A DNA stretch of 64,000 bases, taken from NCBI GenBank assembly GCA_020354645.1, contig CP070652.1:292818-356817 (forward strand), read 5' to 3'. The position numbers and the translations under genes were made by a program. Below, piece by piece: positions 30,757 through 54,307 of the stretch. The notes under the pieces are model-generated. The model was given only the letters and a program-made list of their open reading frames with translations. It was not told where the DNA came from and searched no databases. This stretch comes from Deltaproteobacteria bacterium. Its GTDB lineage: Bacteria; Desulfobacterota; Desulfobacteria; Desulfobacterales; G020354645. The number at the start of each line of letters is the position of its first letter. Positions within the stretch are counted from its first letter, which is position 1.

Positions 30757-30766
30757 GGAGGCGGCT

Positions 30767-31441: not shown

Positions 31442-31560
31442 TTTGGCGTATTATTCCTGGCGGAATGCTCTCAGGATAGCATTTTTGCGTGATCAAGACT
31501 CGATTATCGGAAGCCGATGCTAACATGAGGTCTCCCTCGTGCCTCAGGAAAGGGGATGTT

Positions 31561-31992: not shown

Positions 31993-32439
31993 TTAAACCA
32001 GTTGGTTATTGGAATGGAAAAACCCGTCTGCCGCCAACAACACCGAAGTTTTATTTATTCTCCATAACAAAATTCTATCAATTCATCGCTCTCCACCTTT
32101 ATGCGATGCGTTGCAGGCGAAGCGGCCAGTTGACGCGTCGCCAGCAATATGCGAAATTGTCATCCAAAAAGCAGCCGGTGCACTTAAAAACCTCCGACAT
32201 TTTATCCCGCCATCCAATCATTCGAATTTATCCTATGCCCTCTCTTATTATGAAGGGACGTGCAGGACTCAGTGGTAGGCGCTGTATTCCATTAGAGCCG
32301 CCTGCTCGACTTTCTTGTTCCAAAATTTATAATTCGTGATTACGAACAAAACTATGGCATTAATCGGATATATAATATTGACAGAGGCTATCGATTAATT
32401 TAGCTATAAATCTTTTGCGCGTGAATTCGAATTTACAAA

Positions 32440-33696: not shown

Positions 33697-33786
33697 TCAT
33701 ATTTGTTCCGGGAAAATTGCCGGTAAATAAAACGAATGGATAGGTAATAAATGCTTTCAAAACAGATTTGAAAAAGGCGAGACAAC

Positions 33787-35370: not shown

Positions 35371-35417
35371 ATAATACCATCTGTACTGTAAAGGATTTGT
35401 GAGGTTAAGATTGCTAA

Positions 35418-40400: not shown

Positions 40401-40648
40401 ACCAGTATCGTATAATTTCCGTCTTCGCCTGGAGAAGATGACACCTCAACGTCAACCAAATCAAACTGACCCTGGGTAATATAGTTGCTTAAATCTCGAG
40501 CGGGATCTCTCTGCTTGACTAAAAAGGCCACCACCACGATATCTTTTTCATCGCAGAGTTTCGGCTTGAATGCATCCACTAAAAATTTATCAAGCACCAG
40601 TCCTTCTAAATCTCCTGGCTTAAACTCTTCTTCCAGCTGCATTTCCAT
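37412..40648 (-). CDS. Large (1078 aa) protein: unknown N-terminal domain + coiled coil + four TPR-like modules separated by acidic low-complexity linkers
   Basis: Long uninterrupted ORF. It contains four copies of a 78-aa module with the consensus .YF.LGL.A....Y.KAI..F..VTELLPNA.RS...LA.LYYRLKDYE.A...A..ALDLGS..A.RILEKI. The linkers are rich in D/E/S/T/P. Confidence 0.7.
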   Translation of the reverse strand: MEMQLEEEFKPGDLEGLVLDKFLVDAFKPKLCDEKDIVVVAFLVKQRDPARDLSNYITQGQFDLVDVEVSSSPGEDGNYTILVELNRNQDMFDIMDNLLNHITHLVNVTQWYFKPFDFDDFIVWNRENFVNTVPQNLESYFGNQEEHIDEGETVSAHLGTPASGFDYQLLGEIIENQVTKSSRAYIKAFQKQFKVIIKDSRSMLQHIADLKSDHQYLHQQLELYEQREKMALLREQQDFKRIRALEHKISLIAPHDAEKPEIVIPQSSVPITVKSPDFSDTPSEPEVKENTESDDRKREETPTTTEEPASRTSSSGVDVSQETVSGFAEKAEEKFVSEPIVTDTGSSVEETSKSEAPLIDAGGAVEEKLEDSEQPTDQEKDAGRVPSLPTDVEEIKQQAAISATETDSLQRKEAVDVDEDRPTDTEPDSSARKKLVKKLIAQGLAAVKQKEYHKAIEYFTQVTELMPNARRSLLRIAVLFYRLKDYEAAYEYAQRALELGAESAKRILAKIKDKQAMISDESISEDSYESPTEEAIIWGPDDFDASVDTEGSSSGEGTDAADSQDVIIFGQPVEAKKAADHQASPLEEKEDLTSPQDEPPSTVTVAYDFEAIQFLQAPQQPKAGPESLAGSDNAKEYFSLGLKAFKQKKYHEAIDYFTKVTELLPNARRSFIRLAALYYRLKDYETAQTHARKALDLGSRSAERILEKIEAKRSADSGKKPPTEMDDTSREPPTPDRSEDIGYPEEAREQAVIDAERANRLNENAKGPQAKPTVSASVSDTKSYPEGGDAKKYFTLGVKAFERNEYQKAIENFSRVTELLPNAPRSFFRLAVLHYRLKDYEKARGYAQQALDLGSDDARRILEKIANKRATSSDASGPGEITDTLPEFPTLDIQKTNQMVTAIPTKSANEQDGKVSEAPGETMTDADQSDLQDSKFLEMESATETISMEDDTLIYSNNSQSPAPDTEIFPKSDPVSDYFALGLAAAEQESYHKAIQNFTKVTELLPDAPASYLNLANLYLKLKDYEQAKENAKRAFDLGSESAKRILEKVEAELWTASAVSAANSEESRANESIVTNG
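37487..39337 (-). repeat. Four in-frame 234-nt (78-aa) TPR-like repeat modules
   Basis: Modules lie at 39104-39337, 38510-38743, 38042-38275 and 37487-37720, all in the same frame. Similarity is clear at the protein level and partly visible at the nucleotide level. Confidence 0.85.
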
Positions 40649-40998
40649 TTTTGCGATTCCTAGTTTGGGTAATTTCTAAAAAACTACCTGCCGATATCCC
40701 GCTAAATATATAAAACTTACACTATAAAACCCTGAAAGTCAAGGATAAATGAGCATTTTTATTGAATCATTTCGAATAGTTAACCTTGTGGTGGTCTTGA
40801 TGACAAATAGACTTTTTCTCTTTACAATTAGGTTGCCGCTTGATGGTATAAGTGATTTTCCAAATGTTATTTTTTAATTGTTTTCAATCAATTTATCTGT
40901 TATTTTAATAAGTTAAATATTTAGTGAAGTGCTGCTGTGACCTCAGATAGCGGCTTCGGAAACAAATTTTGTAAAATTTTGTGAGAAAAGGAAAAAAA

Positions 40999-41457
40999 AT
41001 GGGGCTTTATGAATTGATCGGCGATATGCCTATGTTCAAATTTTTCTCTGAGCAAGAGAAAAGAGATTTTGCGGCCATGGAACACTCACTCCTGGGTTTC
41101 AATAAAGATGACATTATAATCCGGGAAGGTGATTCTTTCACATCCCTGTACCTCTTGATTAAGGGAACCATAATAATCACCAAAACAGCCTATAATACAG
41201 TCATATCGAAGCTCACTCCGGGTGCCGTGTTTGGTGAAATGTCGTTTTTGACCAAAAAACCCCGCTATACAAATGTAATTGCCAACGAAAAAGTTCTGGT
41301 GATGAAAATGGATGATGAGTTCTTTAGAATGGTCAAGCCGGAGATCAAAGACAGAATAAAAGACTATCTCATTGAACTCCTTATAAATCGACTGGATGCA
41401 ATGAACGAATCGCTAAGCAAAATAGCCAAATATGCCAGAAGTTACTCTCTCAAATAA
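40999..41457 (+). CDS. Stand-alone cyclic-nucleotide-binding (CAP effector-type) domain protein
   Basis: FGEMSFLTKKPRYTNVIA phosphate-binding-cassette-like motif within a beta-roll layout. There is no DNA-binding domain. The ATG at 40999 is preceded by AAGGAAA. Confidence 0.7.
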   Translation: MGLYELIGDMPMFKFFSEQEKRDFAAMEHSLLGFNKDDIIIREGDSFTSLYLLIKGTIIITKTAYNTVISKLTPGAVFGEMSFLTKKPRYTNVIANEKVLVMKMDDEFFRMVKPEIKDRIKDYLIELLINRLDAMNESLSKIAKYARSYSLK

Positions 41458-41543
41458 ACATTCAGACACCCGCTCAGATTTTGTTCATCTTTCAATTGTA
41501 GATGATTTTTCAATCTTAACCCATCCCATGCAAACCACAAATT

Positions 41544-42026
41544 ATGCCGACGATACTTAAAGCCAGGGAAGATTTTCTGGTCGGTCTCATTTCGGATACA
41601 CACGGTGTCTTAAATCCTGCCGTAATGAAACTATTTGATGGTGTCCATGAAATCATTCATGCTGGAGACATCGGTGCGCCGGATGTCCTTGATGTATTGG
41701 GACGAATTGCGCCGGTTATTGCGGTTCGCGGCAATATGGACGGCGGTTCATGGATAAGTGATCTGCCGGATGTCAAGGTGGTTGAAGTTGGAAAGGTTAT
41801 TTTATATGTTCTGCACGACCTCCACCAACTGGATTTGGATCCGTATGCAGCCGGTTTTAACGCAATCATCAGCGGTCACACCCATCGGACCGCCATCAGG
41901 GAGCAAAACGGCATATTATACGTAAATCCAGGCAGTGCCTCTTTTCCGGGCATCAATTATGCCGCCACTATTGCTTTGCTCCGGATAAGCGGTGAGAGAC
42001 TGACAGCTCGCATTGTTGAAATCTGA
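41544..42026 (+). CDS. YfcE/MJ0936-family metallophosphoesterase
   Basis: Motifs ISDTHG, HAGDIG, RGNMDG, SGHTHR and VNPGS in the canonical order. 160 aa. Confidence 0.85.
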   Translation: MPTILKAREDFLVGLISDTHGVLNPAVMKLFDGVHEIIHAGDIGAPDVLDVLGRIAPVIAVRGNMDGGSWISDLPDVKVVEVGKVILYVLHDLHQLDLDPYAAGFNAIISGHTHRTAIREQNGILYVNPGSASFPGINYAATIALLRISGERLTARIVEI

Positions 42027-42143: not shown

Positions 42144-42542
42144 ATGCTGACAATCGAATTGAAATTTAACAATGCAGTGCTCAAAACCATCGAAACCGAA
42201 AAAGAAGTTATCACAATTGGGCGCAATGTTAAAAATGATATTCAAATCGATAATTTGAGTGTTTCAAAACAACATGCAAAGATTGTAAAAAACCAAGGCA
42301 AATATTTTCTTGAGGACCTCAATAGCACCAACGGTACTTATCTCAACGAAAAAAAGGTTTCGAAAGAAAAGTTGACGAACAATGATACTATAACGATTGG
42401 AAAGCACACCTTGGTCGCCATCCTTGAAAAACAAAAGCTTGAGAATTCGGACCCAGAAATGATTAATGACACGATGATGCTTACGACCGAAAAACACAAA
42501 CAAATGCTTGAAAAACAAAAGAAAGTCAAAAGCAAAAAATAA
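42144..42542 (+). CDS. FHA-domain protein
   Basis: ITIGRNVKNDIQIDNLSVSKQHAKI....YFLEDLNSTNGTYLN...ITIGKHTL is a canonical FHA core. GGAGG Shine-Dalgarno. Lys-rich tail. Confidence 0.8.
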   Translation: MLTIELKFNNAVLKTIETEKEVITIGRNVKNDIQIDNLSVSKQHAKIVKNQGKYFLEDLNSTNGTYLNEKKVSKEKLTNNDTITIGKHTLVAILEKQKLENSDPEMINDTMMLTTEKHKQMLEKQKKVKSKK

Positions 42543-42722
42543 ACCGGCCGCTATCTCCTGACACTTCAGTTTAGACCATCTGGATTTGTCGAAACAGTCA
42601 ATACGAAAAAAAATGTCAGGGCTTGAACGTGAAGGAGTTCACCAGTCATTCAACGCTAGATTCAATCAGATTACAGTACCCACCCGGCACGATTCCCTGC
42701 AGACATATCTGGAAAATCAACT

Positions 42723-43499
42723 CTAGGATGTAGATCTGCCCATCCTCCTTATTGATATGAGGGATCTTTCAGCGGCAATGAAAGGTAGCTTATACGTTTT
42801 TCGGGTCACAGAAAAATTATCGCTACCGGTGGTCGACGCGATCGAATCACGTGAAAGAGCTAAGCGGACAGATTCAATTTCTGGTTCGGAAACCTTGCCT
42901 TTCATGGCGACTATCAGTCCGTCTTTTTTCAATGCTGGCAACGCCATTGTAATAAAATCATTCAAAGAAGCGAGGGCGCGGCTGATGACAATATCAAAGG
43001 GTTTGGCTAAAACGCTCTTTATTGGGTTAAATGACGGCCGTCTGAATTCAAGTTGGGTTTTTTGGAATCTGGGAATTTCAGGATGTTCTAAAATGATGTC
43101 CTCCCCTCTGATTTGGTGAACATCCATATTATCCAATTTTAAGGTTCTCAAAACATGGTTTAAAAAACTGACCTTTTTGCGTGAAGCATCAATAAGCGTT
43201 ACCGACAAGGTAGGCATCAGTATCTTGAGCGGTATACCGGGAAATCCGCCACCTGATCCAATATCAAGCATGGAATCGTGGGGGAATATCATAACGGCCG
43301 GAGCGAGTGAATCTACAATATGTTTAACAGCAATTTCGAATGGATCGGTGATAGCGGTAAGATTGATCTTTCGGTTCCAATTTATCAGTTCCCTGGCATG
43401 GGCGGCAAATAATTTCAACTGTTCATCGCTGACATCAATACCAACTGTTTTGGCCCCTTGACGTATAATAATATTCCATTTTTCAGAACCGATTTCCAT
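42723..43499 (-). CDS. rsmG: 16S rRNA (guanine527-N7)-methyltransferase RsmG (GidB)
   Basis: WNRKINLTAITDP, KHIVDSL, LDIGSGGGFPGIPLKI, TLIDASRKKVSFL. The start is placed at the ATG at 43499 (MEIGSEKW). Confidence 0.8.
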   Translation of the reverse strand: MEIGSEKWNIIIRQGAKTVGIDVSDEQLKLFAAHARELINWNRKINLTAITDPFEIAVKHIVDSLAPAVMIFPHDSMLDIGSGGGFPGIPLKILMPTLSVTLIDASRKKVSFLNHVLRTLKLDNMDVHQIRGEDIILEHPEIPRFQKTQLEFRRPSFNPIKSVLAKPFDIVISRALASLNDFITMALPALKKDGLIVAMKGKVSEPEIESVRLALSRDSIASTTGSDNFSVTRKTYKLPFIAAERSLISIRRMGRSTS

Positions 43500-43609
43500 G
43501 AACCTACAACAAGCATTGGCAATCATTCACATAGGAGGACACAGCGGCTTTACATCCATTAGAACAAACATTCAAAATCGAAGCATCAGCTGCTGTGAAA
43601 ATAGTGCTG

Positions 43610-45994
43610 CTAGTTTATACACACCCGTCGAACTTCAGAAACATCGGTGTGCCCTTGGAAAGCCTTCATGATGCCATCTTGCTTTAAGGTGGTCATGCCT
43701 TCTTTAATCGCCTGGGCAAAAAGCATTTCAGTAGGAGTCGCCTTTTTAATCATTCTTTTTATTTCATCGGTGCCCTCCATGAGCTCATGGATACCCATGC
43801 GACCCCTGTAGCCGGTACTGGAGCAAGAGGCGCAGGCGCCCGGCCGTTTGAGGGTAACTTCGGATGAGTAAATTATCCCGGTTTTCTCAAACATTTTCTT
43901 TCCATAATCCGAGACGATTTCTTGAAACTCCTCCCGTGCTGGATTATAATCTTTACTGCAGTCGGCACATAATCTTCTAACCAATCGCTGGGCCAACACA
44001 GCCAGAAAAGCATCCGAAAAATTCAGCGGATTAAGGCCCATGTCAAGCAATCGTGTCACCGTCTCAGGTGCACTGTTGGTGTGCAGGGTTGAAAGGACCA
44101 GATGACCGGTGAGCGAAGCCTCCACACCAATGGAAGCCGTTTCCTCATCCCGCATTTCGCCGATCATAATGATGTCCGGATCCGCCCTTAAAAAGGCACG
44201 CATGACCCTCGCAAAATCAAGTCCGATTCGGGGCTTAACCTCTACTTGTCTTAAACCGGCCTGAGTGATCTCAACCGGGTCTTCAGCGGTCCAGATTTTA
44301 ACGCCGGGTTTGTTGATATGGGCCAGCGCGGAGTGAAGTGTGGTAGTCTTGCCGGAACCAGTCGGACCCACGCACAATATGAGACCGTAAGGATTCAAAA
44401 TTGCTTTTTTCAAAACAGTATAATTCCTTTTGGTCAGCCCCATATCCTCCAATTGCATAGCCCCGGCCTTGGCCAGAATCCTCATCACAGCATCCTCGTA
44501 ACCGCCAGCAGTCGGCAATGTGGCCACTCGCAGTTCAAAGGACGGTATGCCTTTCCGTTTAAACTTTATTTTACCGTCCTGGGGCAGCCGTCGTTCAGCG
44601 ATGTCCAGATGAGACATAATTTTTATCCGTGAAAGAATAGCCCGGGCCATTGAATTAGGTACTTTGAGATAATCCTGACACACACCGTCCATCCGGAATC
44701 GGATGCTCGTGGCCTTGGTGATCGGTGATGGCTCAATGTGGATATCGGAGGATCCTTTGCGATATGCCGCAATAATACACTGATCAACCAGCTTGACCAC
44801 CTTGCTGGAACTTTCATCAACTTCTTCGATATCATCATCGTAATCTTCATCTTCTTCAAAGGAGACATCTGGAATCAGATCGTAATCATCGACGCCATCC
44901 TCGCTAACCTCCCCTTCTGTCAATTGTTGGTTTTCAGCATAGAACCGTTTAATGAATTCTTCGATGTCCTCCTTTATCGCCACGGAGAAATTGATCTTGG
45001 GGGTGTTCAACAAGGCTTTTATATTGTCGGTTTTATTCAGGTCCCGAGGATCATCGACCAGCACCTCAACCGCATCCTTATCCCAACTGAACGGCACCCA
45101 CCCTTCGTTGAGCAGAAATGCCTCTTTCAGATTTCCTAACAGCTCCGTAGGAGTTGGCACTGCCGGATCATAATCGCGGAAAGGACAGCCGTAGTATAGA
45201 GAAAAAGATTTGCCAATGGCGGCCTTGCTGAGGCCATATTGACCGGTTAGAACAAATTCTACGCTCTTTTTCATTTTCTTAGAAAGCGCAAAAGCTTTCT
45301 GAAGCTGATCTTTTGTAACCTTTTTTTGCTTTAAGAGATAATCATATTTTGACCCCGAAGCGAAGCCTGCCGTAAGCGCGTTCACTCTTTTCTTGATTTC
45401 AGTGTCGGCCGGATTTACTTGTAGTGCTGATTTATAGAGATCCAATGCCGGTTCCTTATGATCTCTTTTCTCCATTTCCTGGCCAAAATAATACTTAACT
45501 CGTGCTCTGGCATCTTTTTCAAGCCGCTGATCATCGGTTAAATTATTGATATAATCGACAACCTTGTCGGGTGACTTATTCTTCAGAAGGCATTCGGTAA
45601 AATCGGCAACAATCTTATCCGGCGGAAACCCCTGGAATATTAATTTTTCATACTCATTAATGGCCTCAACATATAGTCCTAATTCCTTGAAACTGGCAGC
45701 ACTGTCTAGAAGTGTTTGACCGCTGAGGATATCGCGACCACTTTCTTGGCCTGACAATTTTTTCTTGAGCATGGATATGTCTTCTGCAGTAACTCGACTG
45801 CTTTCCGTATGCGTCCGATCGGCCATCTCCTGTTTAACGGCGTCAATTTTCTTTTTAATCGTCTCGGTCGTTCGGGCATCCTTTTCGGGAATTAATGAAA
45901 GAAGTTGCTCATAGATACTGAGAGACTCATCATACAATCCCATGGAGCGGCAGACTTCTGCCTCATTCAGTCTGGTGTCTAATTCGGCTTTCAT
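43610..45994 (-). CDS. GspE/PilB-family secretion ATPase with N-terminal TPR-like extension and T2SSE_N domain
   Basis: 794 aa. Walker A GPTGSGKTTT, Walker B-like DPDIIMIGEMRD, His box LTGHLVLSTLHTN, and a tetra-Cys motif CADC...CASC. The T2SSE_N-like segment is KVTKDQLQKAFALSKK...LSKAAIGKSFSLYYGCPF. The first 200 or so residues are TPR-like helices. Confidence 0.85.
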   Translation of the reverse strand: MKAELDTRLNEAEVCRSMGLYDESLSIYEQLLSLIPEKDARTTETIKKKIDAVKQEMADRTHTESSRVTAEDISMLKKKLSGQESGRDILSGQTLLDSAASFKELGLYVEAINEYEKLIFQGFPPDKIVADFTECLLKNKSPDKVVDYINNLTDDQRLEKDARARVKYYFGQEMEKRDHKEPALDLYKSALQVNPADTEIKKRVNALTAGFASGSKYDYLLKQKKVTKDQLQKAFALSKKMKKSVEFVLTGQYGLSKAAIGKSFSLYYGCPFRDYDPAVPTPTELLGNLKEAFLLNEGWVPFSWDKDAVEVLVDDPRDLNKTDNIKALLNTPKINFSVAIKEDIEEFIKRFYAENQQLTEGEVSEDGVDDYDLIPDVSFEEDEDYDDDIEEVDESSSKVVKLVDQCIIAAYRKGSSDIHIEPSPITKATSIRFRMDGVCQDYLKVPNSMARAILSRIKIMSHLDIAERRLPQDGKIKFKRKGIPSFELRVATLPTAGGYEDAVMRILAKAGAMQLEDMGLTKRNYTVLKKAILNPYGLILCVGPTGSGKTTTLHSALAHINKPGVKIWTAEDPVEITQAGLRQVEVKPRIGLDFARVMRAFLRADPDIIMIGEMRDEETASIGVEASLTGHLVLSTLHTNSAPETVTRLLDMGLNPLNFSDAFLAVLAQRLVRRLCADCSKDYNPAREEFQEIVSDYGKKMFEKTGIIYSSEVTLKRPGACASCSSTGYRGRMGIHELMEGTDEIKRMIKKATPTEMLFAQAIKEGMTTLKQDGIMKAFQGHTDVSEVRRVCIN

Positions 45995-46099
45995 TTTTGT
46001 TTAACCACCTTTCATGATTAGCGGCCCCTTGCCCCCCTGAAACACGACACAGGCAGAACAGTTAATCATTACCTGGGAGGGGTTCTGTCATTTTTTATG

Positions 46100-46447
46100 T
46101 TATTTTTTAAAAAGGCGTTTTAATCCTTTAGATCCTTTGAAAGGTTTCAAAGCGGGTAAGGCAATATCGCAATTTAGCCGCACCATCGCCGCTGATACGA
46201 AACTTCCCATCAATATTAAAAGGTATCCTACCTTGGCTTTTCGCACATAGAGCCTGCTTTTCTCGAAGATTAGATCCGTCTCTCTAATCCCGTTCAGTGA
46301 ATCAATAAAGTGACTCCAATCCTTATTTTCCGGCTCCTGGGTTAGGGGTGCTGAAAACTCTTTAAAAATGATGTCACCGTTAAATGACAAAAGCAGAACG
46401 CCCTTAACACCTTCCATACTCAGTATATCCTTAAATATTTCTCTCAT
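46100..46447 (-). CDS. Roadblock/LC7-like small protein
   Basis: The layout GVKGVLLLSFNGDIIFKEF....RLYVRKAKVGYLLILMG is typical of the Roadblock/LC7 (MglB-like) fold. Its ATG (46447-46445) overlaps the upstream TGA (46446-46444) in an ATGA junction. Confidence 0.55.
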   Translation of the reverse strand: MREIFKDILSMEGVKGVLLLSFNGDIIFKEFSAPLTQEPENKDWSHFIDSLNGIRETDLIFEKSRLYVRKAKVGYLLILMGSFVSAAMVRLNCDIALPALKPFKGSKGLKRLFKK

Positions 46448-47478
46448 TTTTTCAAAACCTGGACGATCTTTTCTCTCGGGCATTTCGGATGGACAGAAAG
46501 CACGGTGGTTTGCTTGTCTGGCAATATAATGAAATCGTTGGTCTCGCCGCGATCTATGTAACCGACTTTTAATTTGCCCGCCTTAAAAAATGAACCGACG
46601 CGGGTAAAGTGTTCAATCAGCCGGTTCCAGGAGTTGTCCTGGTATATACCCGTCACCCCATGACGAGGACCTATTGCCTTTTCTAATCTTTGCTTGATGG
46701 TATTCATAAAATCGGAAGGCCCGGTCTCCTTGATTGGAGTATCTCTTACTATCATTTCCGGTTCTGGTGCCTCTTGAGTCTCATCAACTTTTACCTGAGA
46801 GGCTTCATCCTTCAAACGGGTTGCTTCAAGGATCAGCGGCTGGAGATCGCTTTGTATTTTATTATTAATTTTGGGACAAACATTCTGGATGGTAATCGTA
46901 ACTTTATCCCACGAAAAAATTTTGTACGCCGCTGATTTGCCCTGCAAGTTGTCGACTCTGGCATCCAGGAGTTCGCCATCCCGAAAAAAAAGTACTCCCT
47001 TTTTTCCCGAATTTTTATCTTCAAGCCGGATGGTGCAGGTTTTTTGCTCCATCTCCATCAGTTGAAGGAAAATGCCTGACGAAACACTGTGCAGGGTGCC
47101 ACCTTCTGATTCTCTTCGCAGGGTCGCCATTATTTTACGGGCTAAATTTTCAAGCATAAACGGTTTCGCAATATACCCCACTGCACCGCCTTCGAGTGCA
47201 AGTTTTTCCATTTCGGGAGTACTGTACCCAGTGATGATTACTACTGGTATATCCGGATAGTTTTCCATAATGTGTTCCAGAAGCTCGAATCCATCCATCA
47301 CCGGCATTTTCAGATCGGTAACAACCAGAGATACAATGTTTTTTTTCAGATGTTCCAATGCATCCCGGCCGTTTTTTGCAATCAGCACGGAAAAACTATC
47401 TGCGTACTTCTTCAAGCCGTTTTTTAGAGACAACAACATCTCTTGATCGTCATCCACAATGAGCACATTCTTTACCAT
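46444..47478 (-). CDS. Response regulator: REC + PATAN (DUF4388)-like domain + C-terminal domain
   Basis: REC motifs: VLIVDDD, phospho-acceptor VVTDLKMPVMDG, and YIAKPF. The segment GTLHSVSSGIFLQLMEMEQKTCTIRLED...GVLFFRDGELLDARV....GKSAAYKIFSW matches the PATAN/DUF4388 pattern. Confidence 0.75.
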   Translation of the reverse strand: MVKNVLIVDDDQEMLLSLKNGLKKYADSFSVLIAKNGRDALEHLKKNIVSLVVTDLKMPVMDGFELLEHIMENYPDIPVVIITGYSTPEMEKLALEGGAVGYIAKPFMLENLARKIMATLRRESEGGTLHSVSSGIFLQLMEMEQKTCTIRLEDKNSGKKGVLFFRDGELLDARVDNLQGKSAAYKIFSWDKVTITIQNVCPKINNKIQSDLQPLILEATRLKDEASQVKVDETQEAPEPEMIVRDTPIKETGPSDFMNTIKQRLEKAIGPRHGVTGIYQDNSWNRLIEHFTRVGSFFKAGKLKVGYIDRGETNDFIILPDKQTTVLSVHPKCPREKIVQVLKK

Positions 47479-47501
47479 CTATTTTCCCCACTTTCTCCGC
47501 T

Positions 47502-48620
47502 TCACGAAGCTTTATCAATGTCGACAATTTTAATCCCCGCCACATAATCCATCGCTTCATATTTTTTTATCTTTCCGATTTTTTCGGTGATCTCGTTCAT
47601 CTTTTGAATTTGGTTGTTGATAATCATAATTTTTTGATATTGGGGATCATCTGGCCGCGAATCATTTACGATATCATTAATGACATTGTTAATAATTGTC
47701 AGGGGTTGATTCAAGCGATGAACCACTCCACCTGCCATCTCGAGTACCCCCTGAAATTTATCCCTGCTGGTATTGTCCTTCTGTTTTTTTATCTTCTCTG
47801 TGATATCATGTGCTATGCCTTTGATATGATGTGCCTTGCCATATTTTCTTATCAATACTGCATTGAATTCGAGTTGATGATCAACACCCCTGCCGTCTGT
47901 TAGGTCAAAAATAACCTCCTCCGATCCAAATTTTAAGATATCAGCAAGAAATAGCAGAAAAAGTTCACGGTGCGGGGGGATGAGAAAATCAGATAATGAT
48001 TTCTCCACCAAGTCCCTGACAGGATACCCCAGCAATTCGGCGCCGACCTCGTTAATATCTATTATGTTACCCTGTAAGTCAAAAATGATGATAATGTCAT
48101 CCGCTCCGACGATTCCAGCAAGTTTCGGCACTTCATCTTTTTCTTCAACCTGATCCGTAATATCTTTCAAAACGCCGTCGAGATGGACTACAATTCCATC
48201 GTCATCGGGGACAGCTCTGGCGGTCACTGCACACCAAATGGCTGTTCCGTCTTTCTTTATGAATGAAATTGGCAAATCGGAAACTCGTCCTCTATGCATC
48301 ACCGCATCAACTAAAACTCCCCGGTCTTTTTTGTTTCGATACAGATTTATGGCCGGGCTGCTAATTAATTCATCAGGACTGTCATATCCGAGCGTTTGCG
48401 CAAAACCCCTGTTACAAAATACGATACTTCCCTCTATGGTCGTGCGATAAATAGCCACCGGTATGCTGTTAATAAAGGCGATATATCGCCCGGCTAAGCT
48501 GTCAGATAAATCTTGAGGAGATATTCCCGTCATGTTTATTTTGCCGATAAAAGATAATAGGCTGTTGCGCGTGTAGTCTGGATCATTAAACCAAAACAAA
48601 CGGATGGGCGCTGAGTTCAT
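47502..48620 (-). CDS. PAS-PAS-DHp protein lacking a HATPase_c catalytic domain
   Basis: Two PAS-like segments (YRTTIEGSIVFCNRGFAQTLGY... and IIIFDLQGNIIDINEVGAELLGY...). H-box-like motif AGGVVHRLNQPLTII. The ORF ends about 70 aa after the His, with no N/G1/G2 boxes. Confidence 0.7.
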   Translation of the reverse strand: MNSAPIRLFWFNDPDYTRNSLLSFIGKINMTGISPQDLSDSLAGRYIAFINSIPVAIYRTTIEGSIVFCNRGFAQTLGYDSPDELISSPAINLYRNKKDRGVLVDAVMHRGRVSDLPISFIKKDGTAIWCAVTARAVPDDDGIVVHLDGVLKDITDQVEEKDEVPKLAGIVGADDIIIIFDLQGNIIDINEVGAELLGYPVRDLVEKSLSDFLIPPHRELFLLFLADILKFGSEEVIFDLTDGRGVDHQLEFNAVLIRKYGKAHHIKGIAHDITEKIKKQKDNTSRDKFQGVLEMAGGVVHRLNQPLTIINNVINDIVNDSRPDDPQYQKIMIINNQIQKMNEITEKIGKIKKYEAMDYVAGIKIVDIDKAS

Positions 48621-48623
48621 GGT

Positions 48624-49607
48624 TCAAATGCGTATGCCCAAGTCAGATAACCTTGCTTCATATTTTTTAATCCATGATGACAGATAATTTTTTAACTCCG
48701 GCAGCAAGCTGAATTCCTCTGCCAATTCCACCACTGATTCGACAACGCCGTTAACCAGATCTTTTTCTTCGGTTTCTCCAGTAAAAGAAATAGTGCGGTT
48801 AGCGTACTCAAATTCAGCTGCAAATGGGTCGAGAAACGTGTATTTTTCTGCATTTTCTACAAATTTTTTCCGTAAGGCCTTGTTGAAATCCACTTGCTTG
48901 TCTTGTTTAGAGGCGAAAAGGGTTTCAAAAATACCCAAAAATTCTTCAAGCATTCTAATGACATTGATAGAAAAGCCAGTACCGGTTTTAAGAGGTTTAT
49001 CACTCACCTGATTCTTTTTCAGGGGAATTTTACTTACCTGAAATACACCGCCTGAATCCTTCGACTTATTTATCAGTATTTCAAGGTTCCGCTTGAATGG
49101 AAGTGACTCCTCTTTTCCCCATGAAAATGAACCGCCGATTATCTCTCCATTGCTCATAAAGATAAGACCGCCTTCATCGCCGTTGCCAATTGATATATCG
49201 ATAAAGCCGGTTAATTTCTCGGATCCCATCTTTTTAATCAATCCTTCCAGATCGGTAAATTCAGTGCTTAAATCTTTGTATATCTTATCGGCCGAGGGTA
49301 AGCTGGACCAAAAATATACTTCTTCCTGGGGAATTCTATAAACATCGATGGAAAAATTGTATTCAGATTCTTCCTCCATAAAACGATCGATGGCTTCATA
49401 GCCTAAAATGTCGTTATCTTTATCCCGAAAATAGCCGTTTAGATATTCGTCTTTATCAAAAAATATCACGCCTTCCGCGTTGGAAGATTTAAAGAATATA
49501 CCGCCTGACCCAATTTCACCTTGAAAGTGTTCAATCAATTTCCGGAGATCTATATAGTACATATTCAGGTTTTGCATTACAGGTTTTTCTTTAGGAACAA
49601 CGACCAT
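48624..49607 (-). CDS. Hypothetical protein with two PATAN/DUF4388-like modules
   Basis: Two segments match the PATAN-like pattern: IDLRKLIEHFQGEIGSGGIFFKSSNAEGVIFFDKDEYLNGYF....GYEAI and TDLEGLIKKMGSEKLTGFIDISIGNGDEGGLIFMSNGEIIGGSF. Strong AAGGAGA Shine-Dalgarno 5 nt before the ATG. Confidence 0.5.
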   Translation of the reverse strand: MVVVPKEKPVMQNLNMYYIDLRKLIEHFQGEIGSGGIFFKSSNAEGVIFFDKDEYLNGYFRDKDNDILGYEAIDRFMEEESEYNFSIDVYRIPQEEVYFWSSLPSADKIYKDLSTEFTDLEGLIKKMGSEKLTGFIDISIGNGDEGGLIFMSNGEIIGGSFSWGKEESLPFKRNLEILINKSKDSGGVFQVSKIPLKKNQVSDKPLKTGTGFSINVIRMLEEFLGIFETLFASKQDKQVDFNKALRKKFVENAEKYTFLDPFAAEFEYANRTISFTGETEEKDLVNGVVESVVELAEEFSLLPELKNYLSSWIKKYEARLSDLGIRI

Positions 49608-49723
49608 TACTTCTCCTTTATCGATATGTACTTCGATACCTTACCCGTGTCAGTGCTCAACATGAACAAGGCCTTTGAACATCAAGCGCATCCTGACTTT
49701 TTCAAATCCATTGGTACATAGTT

Positions 49724-50872
49724 CTATCGGTGTCGACGTAATCGTTCGATAGATAATCGCACACTATCTTGCATCCGCGCAATGGCTTCTGCTAAATCCC
49801 CAACCTCATCACTCGATTTTATATTGATCTCAGCATCGAGTTCACCTACGCTGATACGATCTGCAACTTCAGTTAATGATTTTATTCGCCCCGCCAAGCG
49901 ATTCCCGTAGAAGGAAACAATGAGTCCGATGATCAAAAGTGTGACGCCAAGTATACCCCAAACAGTATTTCTGGTCTGTTTTGTCAACTGCTCTGAACTG
50001 GCAACCAACCGCTTAACAGGCGTTGTTAGTTCATCAATGTAGGTTGTTGCTGCCACTACAAACGGCGTTCCCTCTATCGGATTACAGACCATAAATTTAT
50101 CGCGGAAAGTCTCGTCTTTATCCTGCCAAGTGTAATATCCTCTGGATTCTTTGCCGCGCCTGACGCCGATGAAGATCCTCCAAAAACCCTTGAAATTTGG
50201 TCCCAAAGGCTTTTTTAAGGTTTTCATATCAATGCCAACAATTTTAGGATTCACATGTGCCCATGTTCGCCAGATTCCGTCAGGGCCCGGTCGTTGGTAA
50301 AGAGCCGTATAACCCGTCATTCCCACTTTTTGAACAGCCAGCCGTTTAAAATTGTTATCCCTTGCGAAATTCTCTTTCCGCAATCCCGGATGACTCAACA
50401 GATAAAGCTGACACTGGGTAGCAACTGCTCTGGAAATATTAGCAATTTTGTCTTCCGCCATCTGCGATACGATTTTGGAACTTTCGCCTGTGAGCAGCGA
50501 GGCCAGGCTGTTCATCTCGTTCAAGAAAAGCAAGCCGGCAATGGCAACAAATATGATGGGAATGATAAAAAAAAGAATCATCATCCTAGTCCGCACGCCA
50601 AGGCGCTGTGATTTCAGAGCAAAACTAAAACGAGGCTTGGACTCAAAGGATGGAGTTGCAACATCAGGTTCATATGCAGTTTGCATTTGTTTAGCTACTT
50701 CCCCATCCGGTTCAACAAATGGAGGAGGTGCGGGTTCCGGTGTTTTTATTTCCGGTTTCGAAACCGCGAGTATATGATTACACGCCTTACATCGAAATTT
50801 GGCTGTCTGGCCCTTGATTTTGGATGGGTCTATCCGATATTTCTTCCCGCATTCTTCACAAATAATTATCAT
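49724..50872 (-). CDS. Membrane sensor: MJ0042-type zinc ribbon + TM + periplasmic/extracytoplasmic sensor + TM + HAMP, no output domain
   Basis: CEECGKKYRI....FRCKACNHIL zinc ribbon. TM helices MMILFFIIPIIFVAIAGLLFL and VWGILGVTLLIIGLIVSFY. HAMP motif RIKSLTEVADRISVGELDAEI...DEVGDLAEAIARMQ. The ORF ends 15 aa later. Confidence 0.7.
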   Translation of the reverse strand: MIIICEECGKKYRIDPSKIKGQTAKFRCKACNHILAVSKPEIKTPEPAPPPFVEPDGEVAKQMQTAYEPDVATPSFESKPRFSFALKSQRLGVRTRMMILFFIIPIIFVAIAGLLFLNEMNSLASLLTGESSKIVSQMAEDKIANISRAVATQCQLYLLSHPGLRKENFARDNNFKRLAVQKVGMTGYTALYQRPGPDGIWRTWAHVNPKIVGIDMKTLKKPLGPNFKGFWRIFIGVRRGKESRGYYTWQDKDETFRDKFMVCNPIEGTPFVVAATTYIDELTTPVKRLVASSEQLTKQTRNTVWGILGVTLLIIGLIVSFYGNRLAGRIKSLTEVADRISVGELDAEINIKSSDEVGDLAEAIARMQDSVRLSIERLRRHR

Positions 50873-51010
50873 TATTAAACTCCTTTGAAATTGAAAGGTT
50901 TTGACAGTAAACCGGATCGTTCTTCTTTATTAAGATTCATACTTTATTTTCGTGCCACCATTGTGCCCGAAACCGTTTGCAATCTGAAAATATCTTCGCC
51001 AAGATTAAAT

Positions 51011-51481
51011 TCAATATCCCTTCTGCTTAATCTTATTCACCATATTTAATTTAAAAGCGCCTCTTTTTTCATCCCGCTGGATTTCACGGGCAAGCAGATC
51101 CACTAACTCGGCAGCCTGAGAACTTGGAAAGTGGGTAGCCGAATATCCCAACTCGCCTATGACTTCTTCTATCAAGACTTGCGCTATCGGCCCTATTGCT
51201 CGAGACAATTGGGCCGTAAGAAAGCCATAAAATTCTTTATCAAGTGTTAATTTTTCCTTGTTAGCGGCTTCAATGAGTTCAAGGGCCACAAGCCGGTAAA
51301 TAATCTCCCGCATGTCCCCCATATCTATTTTGTTTTCCTCTGCCACCTTGTCCAGAGTCTTCTTACCATCAAAGGCCAAAAAAACCCGCAAGATTTGACT
51401 GTCAAGCGAAAAATCTCCCAAATCATCCTTGATGACTTGCCGGAAGATTATCGATGAAATATTGCCCGACAATATATCCAT
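51011..51481 (-). CDS. Hypothetical protein (156 aa)
   Basis: ORF in operon context, 20 nt after the upstream stop. The segment LRVFLAFDGKKTLDKVAEENKIDMGDMREIIYRLVALELIE resembles a small winged-helix-like module. No firm family assignment. Confidence 0.45.
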   Translation of the reverse strand: MDILSGNISSIIFRQVIKDDLGDFSLDSQILRVFLAFDGKKTLDKVAEENKIDMGDMREIIYRLVALELIEAANKEKLTLDKEFYGFLTAQLSRAIGPIAQVLIEEVIGELGYSATHFPSSQAAELVDLLAREIQRDEKRGAFKLNMVNKIKQKGY

Positions 51482-51501
51482 CCAACAACCCCCAAGTGAA
51501 T

Positions 51502-52119
51502 TTACCTCAAGGATTTAAGTTCCTCTCTCAAGGCTTTGAGTTCAGTTTTAATCAGTTCTTTGATCTCCTCAATAGCCACTAATAAATCATTCAAATCAGC
51601 TTGATCTATTTTTCTCTTACTCACAGACTTTACCTGTTCAATTTTCTCCTTTTTAGGCTTGCTGGGTGTTAATTGCTCTTTTAATGTCTTGTATTTGGCT
51701 AATTCTGTCGCTAGTATTTTTTTCTTCTCGGACTCCGTTAAATCCTTTGACTGTGAAACTTTATCCAGTTGAGTGAATAACGAATTCAAAATTTTAAACG
51801 CATCTGGGTGACACATTCCTTTGTTGGCTTTGATGTATTCCCCGAGTGAACCCAATAACTGCAGAAAAACGAGAAGAATTTTATCGTTTTTGAATCTGCC
51901 CTTTAAAACAGCTATTTGATCGACAAAACTGGTCATTACCTCGTCGGTAATCTCCCAGTCTATAGATAACACAATCGTCTTTAACTCTCTTAGCGGGGAG
52001 TCTTCGGAGTCTGCACTTTCATCCAAATGGACAGCAGCGGTGTTCTCTTCACCGAATAGGTCATCCAAGCGGTCTTCAACCTCTTCAGTAATGTCATCAT
52101 TGTCGCTAGGGAATTCCAA
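51502..52119 (-). CDS. Hypothetical protein, acidic N-terminus and Lys-rich coiled-coil C-terminus
   Basis: 205-aa ORF starting 11 nt after the mglA-like stop. No recognisable motif. Confidence 0.45.
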   Translation of the reverse strand: MEFPSDNDDITEEVEDRLDDLFGEENTAAVHLDESADSEDSPLRELKTIVLSIDWEITDEVMTSFVDQIAVLKGRFKNDKILLVFLQLLGSLGEYIKANKGMCHPDAFKILNSLFTQLDKVSQSKDLTESEKKKILATELAKYKTLKEQLTPSKPKKEKIEQVKSVSKRKIDQADLNDLLVAIEEIKELIKTELKALREELKSLR

Positions 52120-52130
52120 TTTCTCAGCTC

Positions 52131-52736
52131 CTATCTCAGTTCCTTGATTATTGAAGAAATCGTCATCGAGATTATCTTTTTCATGGTTGCCACAACATTT
52201 GTTCCCACCAGAGCGCTGGCTTTAAACGATGGTGTTTTTAATTTATCGTTTAAATCCTCTTCAAGCGTATTTATGGGAAGCAATGGTATTCCCTGTTCGG
52301 CAAGATCTATTTTATTATACTGCAGAACGATGGGAATTTTAAAGATGCTTTTTTTGTAGTTGGCCAGGTTTTCCTGCAGGTTCTTAAGAGAAAGTATATT
52401 TTTCTCCCGTCGCACTGCCATGGCATCTGCCACAAACACAATACCATCAGCTCCTCTCAAGACAAGTCTACGCGTTGCATTATACTTTACCTGTCCCGGC
52501 ACGGTATAAAGTTGTATTTTAATGTCATATCCGTTAACTTTCCCGATATCAAAAGGAAGAAAGTCAAAGAAGAGCGTACGGTCTCCGTGTGTTTTAATCG
52601 TAACCATTTCGGTTTTGATGCGCTCTCTGAATTTTTTATATATGTATTCCAGATTGGTCGTCTTACCGCCCCTTCCCGGGCCGTAGTATACGATTTTAAC
52701 CTGGACCTCTTTCTTTTTCGGATTAATAAATGCCAT
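52131..52736 (-). CDS. mglA: MglA-like Ras-superfamily small GTPase
   Basis: Colinear with Myxococcus MglA as I recall it: KIVYYGPGRGGKTTNLEYIY (P-loop), GDRTLFFDFLP (intrinsic Arg), LYTVPGQV (catalytic Gln), GADGIVFVAD, LQYNKIDL (NKxD). Confidence 0.88.
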   Translation of the reverse strand: MAFINPKKKEVQVKIVYYGPGRGGKTTNLEYIYKKFRERIKTEMVTIKTHGDRTLFFDFLPFDIGKVNGYDIKIQLYTVPGQVKYNATRRLVLRGADGIVFVADAMAVRREKNILSLKNLQENLANYKKSIFKIPIVLQYNKIDLAEQGIPLLPINTLEEDLNDKLKTPSFKASALVGTNVVATMKKIISMTISSIIKELR

Positions 52737-52805
52737 ACTTTAAAATCCGCTGACAATTACGGCTTCGTGTAGACAACATCATCACAGAAGGGCAAAAAGC
52801 CGGCG

Positions 52806-53210
52806 TTAGGGCACATTTATTGTCTCTAAAACCTGCTTTATTTTTTCGACAGCTTCATTGACTTTTAATCGTAAAAAACCAAGGGATATATCATTGCTAA
52901 AAATAGTAATTAACAAAAAATCAGAAATTATTTTGTTAAAGTGTATATTTTCTTTTTTGCCCTTATGGAAAAGCAGCGAAAATTCGCCTTCTCCGATAAT
53001 TTTGGCCATTGCACTTACCGCTCCAAAATTTCCCGCGGCCAGAGCGGCAAGGGAGTATACGTCGTGCTTTATCTTACCATTGTCTCGGTTAGCAATAATA
53101 TTGCCGGCCATATCAATAAGAAACACACAGCGCACCCCGATATCTATCAGGTCCTGCTGCAAGACCCCCTCTATGGTATCAAGCTGTTTTTGACCCAGGG
53201 TATACGACAA
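52806..53210 (-). CDS. mglB: MglB-like Roadblock/LC7 protein (putative GAP of the adjacent GTPase)
   Basis: 134 aa. VRCVFLIDMAGNIIA....SLAALAAGNFGAVSAMAK.....LLFHKGKKENIHFNKI...LLITIF is typical of the Roadblock/LC7 fold. Lies directly upstream of the mglA-like gene. Confidence 0.75.
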   Translation of the reverse strand: MSYTLGQKQLDTIEGVLQQDLIDIGVRCVFLIDMAGNIIANRDNGKIKHDVYSLAALAAGNFGAVSAMAKIIGEGEFSLLFHKGKKENIHFNKIISDFLLITIFSNDISLGFLRLKVNEAVEKIKQVLETINVP

Positions 53211-53605
53211 TTGTCTCCCTCCCGATTGTTATTATGTTTAGACTGAACGATTTTTCAGAAAAACATCCAGCCGGCGTGAAAAACACCCAGATTTCTTGTT
53301 TGAAAGGCTACAATAAATAGTTTTGTTTTAAAACCTTAGAATAACAGATAATATACTCATTTTTCAAGCTAAATTTTAAAAGAGCAAATGAGCTTGTGTT
53401 AATTTAAATCGCTGAAAAATATGAGAATATACGTTACTTTTAAGCCGAATTTGCCTCTCGAACCACATGATTACATCCGATAAAGCCATATCGTTTTTGG
53501 TTGATATTTCAGAAAATGGAAACTACCATACAGCAGATTAGAGTACCGAGTTTCTTCAAATAAATATGCGCTTGTCCACCAATCCGATTGCAGCAGATTT
53601 TTAAT

Positions 53606-54307
53606 ATGAAACAAACGAAATCCTCTGGTATATTTAGACCCTTTGAAGGCCTGCGCATCCTTCTAAAAGATCGGTCCTTGCCACCCAACCCCATAACGCG
53701 GGATAGTTCCCGCATAAAACAAAAGGCCGAAGCAGATCCTGTAGATGACAAGGAGCTATTTAAAAAGGCCATGGTGGGGGTTAAACCGATTTCAAAAGAT
53801 AAATACCGCAAAAAAATTGCCGCTTCCGGCAGACAATTAGTGCACAACAAGCAAAAAGTCGAATGTGATACCTTAATCCGGCTTCACAACCTCATTGAAC
53901 ACGGCGAAGGATTCGTTGTCGCTGATACATCGGAATATGCTGAAGGAGTGGGATACGCTGTAAATCCTGCGGTCACGAAGTATCTTCATCGGGGGGAGTT
54001 TTCCATACAGGCATATGTAGATCTTCACGGGCTTTCAGTCCAGGCAGCTGAGGAGGTATTTAACCGGTTTTTAAAAGAGATGCTTATGTCCGGGAAACGG
54101 GCTGTTTCAATCATACATGGCCGCGGTTTGTCATCGCCGGATAAACCCGTGCTGAAAACCAAAGTTCATAAATGGCTGACCACCGGACCATGGTGCAAAT
54201 GGGTATTGGCCTTTTCGAGCGCCAGACCGTGTGATGGCGGTGCGGGTGCGACTTATGTGCTTCTTCGGCAGCGTCCGTTGACCAAACGTTTGCGAAAGAG
54301 ACTATAG
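53606..54307 (+). CDS. Smr-domain protein (MutS2 C-terminal nuclease-like)
   Basis: C-terminal VDLHGLSVQAAEEVFNRFLKE....GKRAVSIIHGRGLSS....LKTKVHKWL is the Smr core. The start is placed at the ATG at 53606. The track ORF begins at TTG 53588. Confidence 0.8.
   Translation: MKQTKSSGIFRPFEGLRILLKDRSLPPNPITRDSSRIKQKAEADPVDDKELFKKAMVGVKPISKDKYRKKIAASGRQLVHNKQKVECDTLIRLHNLIEHGEGFVVADTSEYAEGVGYAVNPAVTKYLHRGEFSIQAYVDLHGLSVQAAEEVFNRFLKEMLMSGKRAVSIIHGRGLSSPDKPVLKTKVHKWLTTGPWCKWVLAFSSARPCDGGAGATYVLLRQRPLTKRLRKRL

Follow-up and report, generated by a model that had tools for sequence, protein, structure and literature searches.

A conserved mglBA-led operon that may couple a Ras-like GTPase switch and a phosphorelay to a TPR-fused PilB-type ATPase

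MglA and MglB are the model for a Ras-like switch that sets front-rear polarity in bacteria. We analyzed a 64,000-nucleotide (nt) stretch of DNA from a Deltaproteobacteria bacterium (NCBI GenBank assembly GCA_020354645.1, contig CP070652.1, positions 292,818 to 356,817 of the forward strand; hereafter the window, numbered from its first letter), in which ten open reading frames (ORFs) on the minus strand, at 43610-53210, form an operon that opens with an mglB-mglA pair and closes with a PilB/GspE-family ATPase. Judged by its sequences and gene order, the cluster forms a genuine unit, kept across genomes and headed by true Group-1 mglBA genes. We lean towards the view that in this one operon a Ras-like GTPase switch, together with a phosphorelay of the two-component type, is coupled to a dedicated assembly ATPase of the PilB type. 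Its parts, numbered g1 to g10, are as follows.

53211-53587, minus strand: putative promoter/leader, an AT-rich spacer of 377 nt common to the divergent Smr gene
52806-53210, minus strand: g1, MglB, Roadblock/LC7, 134 residues (Robl_LC7, 28.9 bits against a cut-off of 23)
52131-52736, minus strand: g2, Group-1 MglA small GTPase, 201 residues (PDB MglA matches)
51502-52119, minus strand: g3, family without Pfam domain or functional annotation, 205 residues (no Pfam or NCBIfam family matched)
51011-51481, minus strand: g4, DUF8082, 156 residues (PF26309, precomputed for an identical protein)
49724-50872, minus strand: g5, Zn-ribbon, transmembrane (TM) segment, sensor, TM segment and HAMP, 382 residues (Zn_ribbon_4 1.7e-12, HAMP 2e-12)
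48624-49607, minus strand: g6, two tandem PATAN-like modules and a C-terminal domain, 327 residues (internal duplication)
47502-48620, minus strand: g7, PAS-PAS-DHp, 372 residues (PAS_9 1e-26, HisKA E 1.2e-3)
46444-47478, minus strand: g8, REC-PATAN response regulator, 344 residues (Response_reg 1.1e-26, DUF4388 3.6e-13)
46100-46447, minus strand: g9, second Roadblock-fold protein, 115 residues (AlphaFold and Foldseek)
43610-45994, minus strand: g10, TPR-fused PilB/GspE-family hexameric ATPase, 794 residues (T2SSE 8.5e-115)
45350-45994, within g10: TPR module, residues 1-215 (TPR_2 and TPR_14)
44933-45193, within g10: N1/MshEN (GspE_N/MshEN) domain, residues 268-354 (MshEN 4.9e-13)
43625-44815, within g10: ATPase core, residues 394-790 (T2SSE 8.5e-115)

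Domains were assigned with Pfam and NCBIfam profiles and sequence searches of the PDB. All ten ORFs lie at the coordinates of a first-pass annotation of this DNA, and the gaps computed between them, in order from g1 to g10, are 69, 11, 20, 138, 116, 3, 23, −4 and 105 nt, which confirms its description of ten same-strand genes separated by anything from a 4-nt overlap to 138 nt. Its domain calls also proved essentially correct after Pfam, NCBIfam, PDB and fold searches. It had read g1 as Roadblock/MglB-like, g2 as an MglA-like GTPase with P-loop, arginine and TVPGQ, g5 as a Zn-ribbon/TM/sensor/HAMP protein, g6 as a pair of PATAN-like modules, g7 as PAS-PAS-DHp, g8 as a REC-PATAN regulator, g9 as a second Roadblock-like protein and g10 as a GspE/PilB-family ATPase with a TPR-like N-terminal extension; each of these calls stands on the matches and residues described below, that of g9 on its predicted fold, the sequence profiles being silent.

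The operon is bordered upstream by a divergent Smr-domain gene and downstream, after 83 nt and on the same strand, by rsmG/gidB. A strong Shine-Dalgarno sequence (GGGAGGGAG) precedes the TTG start of g1, and four minus-strand sigma-70-like matches are grouped at 53402-53231 in the upstream spacer; over the whole spacer (53211..53587), such matches are not enriched over shuffles. No convincing terminator was found inside the operon, the promoter and terminator scans both being weak evidence, and no riboswitch or other Rfam family was found in 42500-54000. The genes from mglBA through the ATPase are probably carried on one transcript.

What kind of GTPase does the operon encode? Over residues 1-196, g2 aligns with MglA of T. 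thermophilus (PDB 3t12_A, E 5.7e-52) and of M. xanthus (6hjh_A, E 1.4e-50), and it matches Pfam Ras at 3.8e-9. Group-1 MglA proteins are recognized by criteria that include the motif TVPGQ and an arginine finger of their own, adjacent to the threonine of G2 (Wuichet and Sogaard-Andersen 2014, PMC4316618). Both features are present in g2 as R53-T54 and T78-V-P-G-Q82 (the intrinsic Arg and the G3 motif) and, together with the P-loop G19-P-G-R-G-G-K25-T26 and N141-K-I-D144, they are invariant in all 80 orthologs, across which the identity of g2 ranges from 72 to 95%. By these motifs g2 is a bona fide Group-1 MglA, and it does not group with non-MglA families. The mglB gene lies 69 nt upstream of mglA. 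Its product matches M. xanthus MglB in the PDB at E 3.4e-19 (residues 9-131 against 12-133) and has no extended C-terminal helix: it stops at residue 134, and the alignment reaches residue 133 of the 160 in M. xanthus MglB. It scores 62.2 bits against a cut-off of 200 and thus fails the NCBIfam equivalog NF052242, which is of the Thermus type.

How widely is the arrangement shared? A scan for MglA relatives, with one genome per GTDB species, gave 121 loci, the best 80 of which were kept for ortholog counts; bar a few probable mis-binnings, these are labeled Desulfobacterales, Desulfatiglandales or 'Deltaproteobacteria' metagenome-assembled genomes. The order MglB-MglA-g3-[g4-g5]-g6-[g7]-g8-g9-ATPase recurs on a single strand across these 80 species-level genomes, so the arrangement is not peculiar to the window, and it is kept although the proteins have diverged to 30-60% identity. 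Presence was counted in the 50 loci that span mglA to g9: g3, directly after mglA (11 nt in the window), and g8 are found in every one of them, MglB in 49, g6 in 45, g5 in 41, g4 in 39 and g7 in 31. Desulfatibacillum-type loci have the most reduced form, MglB-MglA-g3-g8-g9-ATPase. Complete chromosomes from metagenomes that contain the cluster include CP070673.1 and CP070657.1; CP070694.1 retains its 5' part alone and lacks g6-g10. Among the 47 loci with sequence beyond g9, the TPR-ATPase follows g9 directly in 36. The claim that the operon ends in the motor ATPase, with the TPR fused to it, is thus right as a description of the frequent arrangement and wrong as a universal rule. The cluster is also kept where rsmG and Smr are undetected (for example, L036-L038, L043, L044, L050, L055 and L072). 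A reverse search starting from the TPR module, a single-protein scan of metagenomes that returned 10 close relatives, led to the same cluster in 10/10 contigs, as far as the contigs reach.

The ATPase is unusual in its N-terminus. Taken alone, residues 1-215 of g10 pass the Pfam cut-offs for TPR_2 (28.6 bits, cut-off 27) and TPR_14 (28.9 bits, cut-off 23.5), and 26 of 30 homologs of the module match TPR_14. This TPR-module family is rare: a search of 1.84 billion representatives gives 123 clusters at E<=1e-10. In it the module is always N-terminal, either on ATPases of about 790 residues or on proteins of 240-350 residues. It is specific to the cluster, where, at the position after g9, it is either part of the ATPase gene or has a gene to itself. 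The stand-alone homologs of the N-terminal region lie at 10787-11830 in L053, 7135-8178 in L057 and 6680-7219 in L067; in the two 347-residue copies (L053 and L057), Pfam detects TPR repeats only. Their place at the ATPase position shows that a gene of its own can encode the N-terminal module. The window holds a further TPR protein 3 kb downstream of the ATPase, a 1078-residue multi-TPR protein (37412-40648, minus strand) similar in size to SgmX. Homology between it and the g10 module was considered and rejected, the BLASTP matches having E of at least 0.2.

The remainder of g10 is predicted to be catalytically competent: GPTGSGKT (Walker A), IGEMRD (Walker B) and the zinc-site residues C676, C679, C721 and C724 are invariant in 33/33 orthologs. 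An exact-sequence look-up of g10 gave no record. In the PDB its best scores are to PilF (360 bits), M. xanthus PilB (358 bits) and GspE (332 bits). Residues 214-788 align end to end with residues 3-557 of PilB, including the PilB-type N-terminal domain, and the alignment with GspE begins at residue 339. Control of the ATPase by cyclic di-GMP was also considered and rejected: a regular-expression search of g10 found no match to the 24-residue MshEN binding motif RLGxx(L/V/I)(L/V/I)xxG(L/V/I)(L/V/I)xxxxLxxxLxxQ, the stretch at that position being YDYLLKQKKVTKDQLQKAF, in which Lys replaces the motif Gly, and the surrounding region 42500-54000 contains no riboswitch. Nor does the ATPase belong to a conventional pil/gsp cluster. 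No such neighborhood was found in the window or in related loci, where the gene never adjoins pil/gsp genes, and in the 10 loci inspected downstream of the ATPase it is followed instead by rsmG, a REC protein or an HNH protein.

Three genes in the middle of the operon, g6 to g8, supply the PATAN domains and the elements of a phosphorelay. In g8, a receiver domain (residues 5-116) is followed by a PATAN domain (127-226) and an uncharacterized C-terminal region of 110 residues, and the phospho-acceptor site is intact, with D9/D10/D11, D55, T83 and K105 all present. The window copy of g6 has no Pfam match; its two modules are recognized from an internal duplication (residues 1-110 against 100-205, hhalign 95%) and from its orthologs, 9 of 26 of which match DUF4388 (best 3e-5) and five DUF2226. 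The third protein, g7, consists of two PAS domains and a weak HisKA match at residues 294-348. Its H-box, H301-x-L-N-Q-P-L, is invariant in 25/25 orthologs, HATPase_c is not matched, and the protein stops 71 residues past His301. At 341-372 residues, these 25 orthologs all keep the truncated, kinase-less form.

Does g7 act on g8? In all 32 loci that carry g7, D55 of g8 is intact, whereas in 8 of the 19 loci without g7 it is E, N or V, and D10 or T83 is degenerate in three further loci that lack g7 (Fisher p of 1e-4 for D55, and of 2e-6 with D10 and T83 added). These changes represent about four independent loss events or clades. Because decay of the g8 site tracks the loss of g7, co-variation supports a functional coupling of the two proteins, and g7 is likely a phosphotransfer or phosphatase partner of g8. 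Since it has no catalytic domain, g7 would act as a phosphotransferase or phosphatase, for which proteins of the Spo0B/ChpT kind offer a comparison, or be loaded by a kinase encoded elsewhere. Some relatives encode kinases within the cluster, namely a hybrid histidine kinase in L071 and L056 and a mini-kinase upstream of mglB in L084. The latter, in a metagenome relative, is a 239-residue HisKA-HATPase_c protein (L084 8212-8931) whose gene overlaps the mglB start; upstream in L084 lie another REC-PATAN gene and two sigma-54 activators, and the g3 homolog there has 421 residues. No che genes were found in the cluster.

The identity of g9 emerged from its fold. Alignment moved its start to the second Met (window 46447), which is most likely where the protein begins, and which gives an ATGA overlap with g8. 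Pfam, including Robl_LC7, gave no match; a search of the PDB with the g9 profile left dynein Roadblock matches below threshold (E 0.23-1.4); and descent as an MglB paralog was rejected at the level of sequence, since hhalign against the MglB profile gave a probability of 1.3%. An AlphaFold model built with 44 homologs has a mean predicted local distance difference test score (pLDDT) of 87.6 and a predicted template-modeling score of 0.80. Foldseek matches this model to Ragulator/LAMTOR and MglB structures with probability 1.0 and template-modeling scores of 0.65-0.70; there are 68 PDB matches at E<=1e-3, and the best 50 of the 68 are all Ragulator/LAMTOR, MglB or Roadblock, with scores of 0.6-0.7. 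It is on this ground that the 'second Roadblock' is right. The 506 relatives of g9 are, without exception, named 'hypothetical'. Its C-terminus (46100-46150) carries a conserved basic/aromatic tail, KGxKRFFKK, which follows an invariant RLNCD motif and is disordered in the model; this tail could be a membrane- or partner-binding peptide.

The first-pass annotation had also listed two unknown proteins after the GTPase. For g3 this was correct, there being no Pfam domain or functional name for its family in the database searched; g4 is DUF8082 with a winged-helix-like region. The 1167 database relatives of g3 likewise lack any Pfam domain, and almost all are unnamed or 'hypothetical', a few bearing automatic JGI names such as H-NS or CobT. 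The layout of g3 comprises an acidic N-terminus, a helical bundle at residues 44-150, a variable linker and a C-terminal helix, in an AlphaFold model of moderate confidence (pLDDT 68). Foldseek found no significant fold match for this model in the PDB, the best being CheA-P1-like bundles at E 0.06-0.5, and a profile search of the PDB came back empty. Two identities were rejected. A histidine phosphotransfer (HPt) domain is not supported by the non-significant CheA-P1 matches, and the place of the invariant His104-Pro105, which caps the N-terminus of a helix, differs from that of the histidine in HPt domains; nor is a RomX-like protein, RomX being absent from the matches and the PDB profile search empty. 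Because the CheA-P1 hits are non-significant, the His is misplaced and RomX was not retrieved, we assign g3 to no family. The profile of g4, in turn, matches Lrp/AsnC-type helix-turn-helix regions in the PDB at E 5e-4, which marks residues 26-75 as a winged-helix-like N-terminal region. As g4 is mostly lost along with g5, the two form an accessory module.

The only membrane protein among the ten is g5. An MJ0042-type Zn-ribbon (Cys5/8/28/31) and a Pro-rich linker precede a first TM segment, a periplasmic domain, a second TM segment and a HAMP domain, the hydrophobic segments lying at about 97-119 and 300-322; the protein has no output domain. The periplasmic domain may be Cache-like, to judge from weak Cache matches (E 0.003-0.04). 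In L088, L089, L091 and L093, as well as in L005-type loci, the g5 homolog matches only the roughly 110 HAMP-proximal residues (query 269-381), and g5 of the L005-type subclade appears to lack both its Zn-ribbon and its periplasmic sensor. This same subclade has no g7, and its g8 carries Glu in place of the receiver Asp. The N-terminal part of g5 recalls GltJ of the Myxococcus gliding machinery (PMC11135422), with which it shares the Zn-ribbon cysteines C5/C8/C28/C31, the Pro-rich linker and the TM helix; unlike GltJ, it lacks a GYF domain and terminates with HAMP. The GltJ Zn-ribbon binds MglB, contacting the MglB C-terminal helix (PMC11135422), and by analogy the g5 Zn-ribbon may contact MglB in the same manner.

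How does the operon compare with known systems? The closest parallel is the Myxococcus MglA/MglB-SgmX-PilB route. Both have a Group-1 MglA (R53/T54, TVPGQ) with a Roadblock GTPase-activating protein (GAP) encoded just upstream, and both pair a TPR module as presumed effector of MglA-GTP with a PilB-type ATPase as end point. In Myxococcus, PilB is recruited by SgmX, to whose C-terminal TPRs MglA-GTP binds (Potapova 2020, as cited in PMC11580455), and no direct contacts between SgmX and PilB were detected (PMC11580455). The Myxococcus components are scattered, however, and SgmX is a separate protein with 14 TPRs, whereas in this operon, which encodes all the components, the ATPase itself carries a short TPR module of a specific family. 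A homolog of RomR, RomX, RomY, FrzS or SopA was not detected among the genes of the cluster. STRING shows co-occurrence of PATAN proteins with SgmX, and PATAN genes neighboring mglA and mglB were noted in 2006 and 2014.

Similarly, the cyanobacterial PatA-type regulators (PixE, PixG) combine REC and PATAN and are encoded with sensory proteins, as is g8. In Synechocystis the PATAN domain of PixE binds PilB1, and PatA-type regulators bind PilB1 and PilC (Han et al. 2021, bioRxiv); PATAN-GspE_N fusions also exist. PatA-type proteins place PATAN N-terminal to REC and belong to Che-type operons, however, whereas g8 has the reverse order, REC-PATAN, with an extra C-terminal region, and lies in no Che-type operon. 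Unlike them, it is linked to MglA/MglB and a second Roadblock, and its presumed ATPase partner is encoded in cis. The actinobacterial conservon (CvnA-D) is also a single operon, encoding an MglA-like GTPase along with a histidine kinase, a Roadblock protein and one unknown protein; it differs in having a Group-2 MglA without the Arg finger and TVPGQ, in its four genes, and in the lack of PATAN, TPR or a secretion-family ATPase. Bdellovibrio bacteriovorus has a hub without MglB, such an operon or a fused ATPase, and the TPR partner of MglA-RomR there is Bd2492. In its use of MglA beyond gliding, its TPR protein and its type IV pili output, this hub resembles the operon (Milner 2014, as relayed in PMC4316618). 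Likewise, the MglB paralog MglC (PMC4719450) is a second Roadblock protein beside MglB, as is g9, although by sequence g9 shows no similarity that could be detected to either of these two.

The suggestion that the operon had not been described as a unit agrees with the literature: a full-text search of open-access papers and bioRxiv found no paper on it. Nor did that search turn up a description of MglA in Desulfobacterales, or one of a PilB-type ATPase that is fused to TPRs and linked to mglBA. What is new is the conserved combination and the TPR-ATPase fusion; the pairwise links (PATAN-MglA, PATAN-PilB and MglA-TPR-PilB) are already published.

We propose that the sensory phosphorelay and MglA-GTP would converge on the pilus-type ATPase, the former by way of PATAN and the latter by way of the fused TPR, in analogy with the systems just described. 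MglA, assigned to its family from sequence, would cycle between GTP and GDP with MglB as its GAP. The g3 and g9 proteins might be extra regulators or adaptors of MglA, for instance in the role of guanine nucleotide exchange factor (GEF), co-GAP or scaffold, comparable to RomX, RomY or MglC. We suggest this tentatively; g3 always follows mglA and g9 is always translationally coupled to g8. Environmental input would enter through the membrane sensor g5 with its cytoplasmic Zn-ribbon and through g7, which, as the co-variation suggests, would exchange phosphate with the g8 receiver; the kinase loading g7 would be encoded elsewhere or, in some relatives, in the cluster. The ATPase would be bound by g8 through its PATAN domain and by g6 through its PATAN-like modules, as PilB1 is by the PixE PATAN domain, and MglA-GTP would bind the TPR module at the ATPase N-terminus, as it binds SgmX. 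Finally, the ATPase would dock on a type-IV-filament platform encoded elsewhere and so drive the assembly of a pilus-type fiber at a set place and time.

Several observations weigh against this proposal. After g9, 5 of the 47 loci carry a sensor protein containing REC, either a hybrid histidine kinase or, at a contig end, a REC-PAS-GAF protein. The two complete inserts (L071 and L056) are hybrid histidine kinases of the form REC-PAS-GAF...HisKA-HATPase-REC, and in L056, the one locus reaching further, the kinase is followed by a TPR-MshEN ORF that the contig edge ends. Two more of the 47 have the stand-alone 347-residue homolog of the ATPase N-terminus, a shorter one being present in a third locus (L067), and unrelated genes follow g9 in four. 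The g10 protein falls below the NCBI equivalog cut-offs for both PilB (TIGR02538, 486.5 against 675.65) and GspE (TIGR02533, 475.6 against 630.25), and no PilC/GspF, pilin/pseudopilin or secretin genes stand beside the cluster in the window or in related loci. No similarity of g3 to RomX or to solved structures is detectable, and the C-terminal helix, through which MglB is contacted by the GltJ Zn-ribbon, is missing from the window MglB. In the closest relatives, part of the synteny takes in the housekeeping genes Smr and rsmG as well, so that shared descent may account for some of it. The steps that involve the MglA regulators, PATAN-ATPase binding, MglA-TPR binding and platform docking rest on analogy.

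Which other explanations fit the locus? A possible, though doubtful, alternative is that the functional unit is the signaling core only (MglB-MglA-g3, the PATAN proteins and the second Roadblock), which would resemble the actinobacterial conservon as a general switch for polarity or scaffolding. Its output could then lie in cell polarity, in the choice of division site or in some other process of the envelope, and the ATPase, as one of several interchangeable genes downstream, would not have to be under MglA control. The core genes are indeed present in 49-50 of the 50 loci while the gene after g9 varies (ATPase, TPR-only, hybrid kinase or unrelated), L027 and L070 retain just the 5' part of the cluster, and Group-1 MglA neighborhoods are otherwise variable (Wuichet and Sogaard-Andersen). 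Against it, the ATPase directly follows g9 in 36/47 loci across divergent lineages, and even the kinase insert of L056 is still followed by the TPR-MshEN ORF. Where a stand-alone gene takes its place, this encodes the same TPR(+MshEN) module, which points to a constant TPR partner and not to arbitrary neighbors, and PATAN-PilB binding has experimental precedent. We regard as improbable, and more so than the core switch, that the ATPase powers a type II secretion-like (pseudopilus) system and that the operon gates protein secretion on signals. The GspE and PilB scores are nearly equal, at 475.6 and 486.5 bits in NCBIfam and 332 and 358 in the PDB, and a lone GspC-like gene (13603-14454), the one gene of the window related to such a machine, lies 30 kb away. 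That gene, however, is inside an unrelated polyunsaturated-fatty-acid (PUFA) synthase cluster, the part of g10 beyond the TPR aligns end to end with PilB and with GspE from residue 339 only, and type IV pili are the subject of all functional precedents for regulators of the MglA, PATAN and TPR kinds.

Could the gene order be kept merely by the relatedness of the genomes, the GTPase part and the ATPase being functionally uncoupled? The flanking Smr (upstream) and rsmG (downstream) genes are syntenic in many loci too, as such an explanation predicts. Yet the order persists where neither is detected and at 30-60% protein identity, the spacing is tight and includes an overlap, accessory genes come and go as modules while the core order is kept, and the loss of g7 tracks the decay of the g8 active site; we consider this explanation very unlikely. 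A bolder form of our own proposal, a GTPase-gated motor, goes beyond coupling: MglA-GTP and REC-PATAN would both bind the TPR-PilB-type ATPase, g3 and g9 would be a new GEF/co-GAP pair, and the fusion would explain the activation of PilB by SgmX. We offer it as a speculation that is probably not correct in full. If it were true, the TPR-PilB fusion would be a Rosetta-stone answer to the question of how SgmX activates PilB in Myxococcus.

The proposal that the operon couples the GTPase switch and the phosphorelay to its ATPase matters for several reasons. The TPR-ATPase fusion provides a Rosetta-stone argument for direct TPR-ATPase coupling, and the g3 and g9 families, both unannotated, become candidate MglA regulators. 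The operon, whose sensory front end is modular, is a compact system that allows joint tests of the MglA-PATAN neighborhood, PATAN-PilB binding and the MglA-TPR-PilB links. A further question is what role an MglA polarity switch would have in anaerobic sulfate-reducer lineages, which to our knowledge have not been studied for MglA-dependent motility.

Finally, we note other genes of the window. Between rsmG and the large TPR gene, at 40981-42026, lie a small cyclic nucleotide monophosphate (cNMP)-binding protein (40981-41457) and a Metallophos_2 phosphoesterase (41544-42026) on the opposite strand, which could be a cyclic-nucleotide signaling pair. A cluster of the pfa type for PUFA/polyketide synthesis occupies 3153-25032. 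It contains a PfaD-like enoyl reductase (3153-4829), a 2167-residue KS-AT-ACP-KR-DH protein (5693-12196), a 2354-residue protein with two KS and four FabA domains (15736-22800) and then a KAS-III-like protein and a hydrolase; three minus-strand genes split it between its two giant ORFs. The GspC-like gene inside this cluster encodes 283 residues with T2SSC and PDZ domains on the minus strand, has no other type II secretion genes near it and adjoins a 289-residue ORF without a Pfam match (14545-15414). At 29515-36638 runs a series of plus-strand redox genes, including Pyr_redox_2 proteins, DUF1641, an MvhD/FlpD-ferredoxin fusion and 4Fe-4S proteins, which is similar to the Hdr/Flox-type electron-transfer clusters of sulfate reducers.

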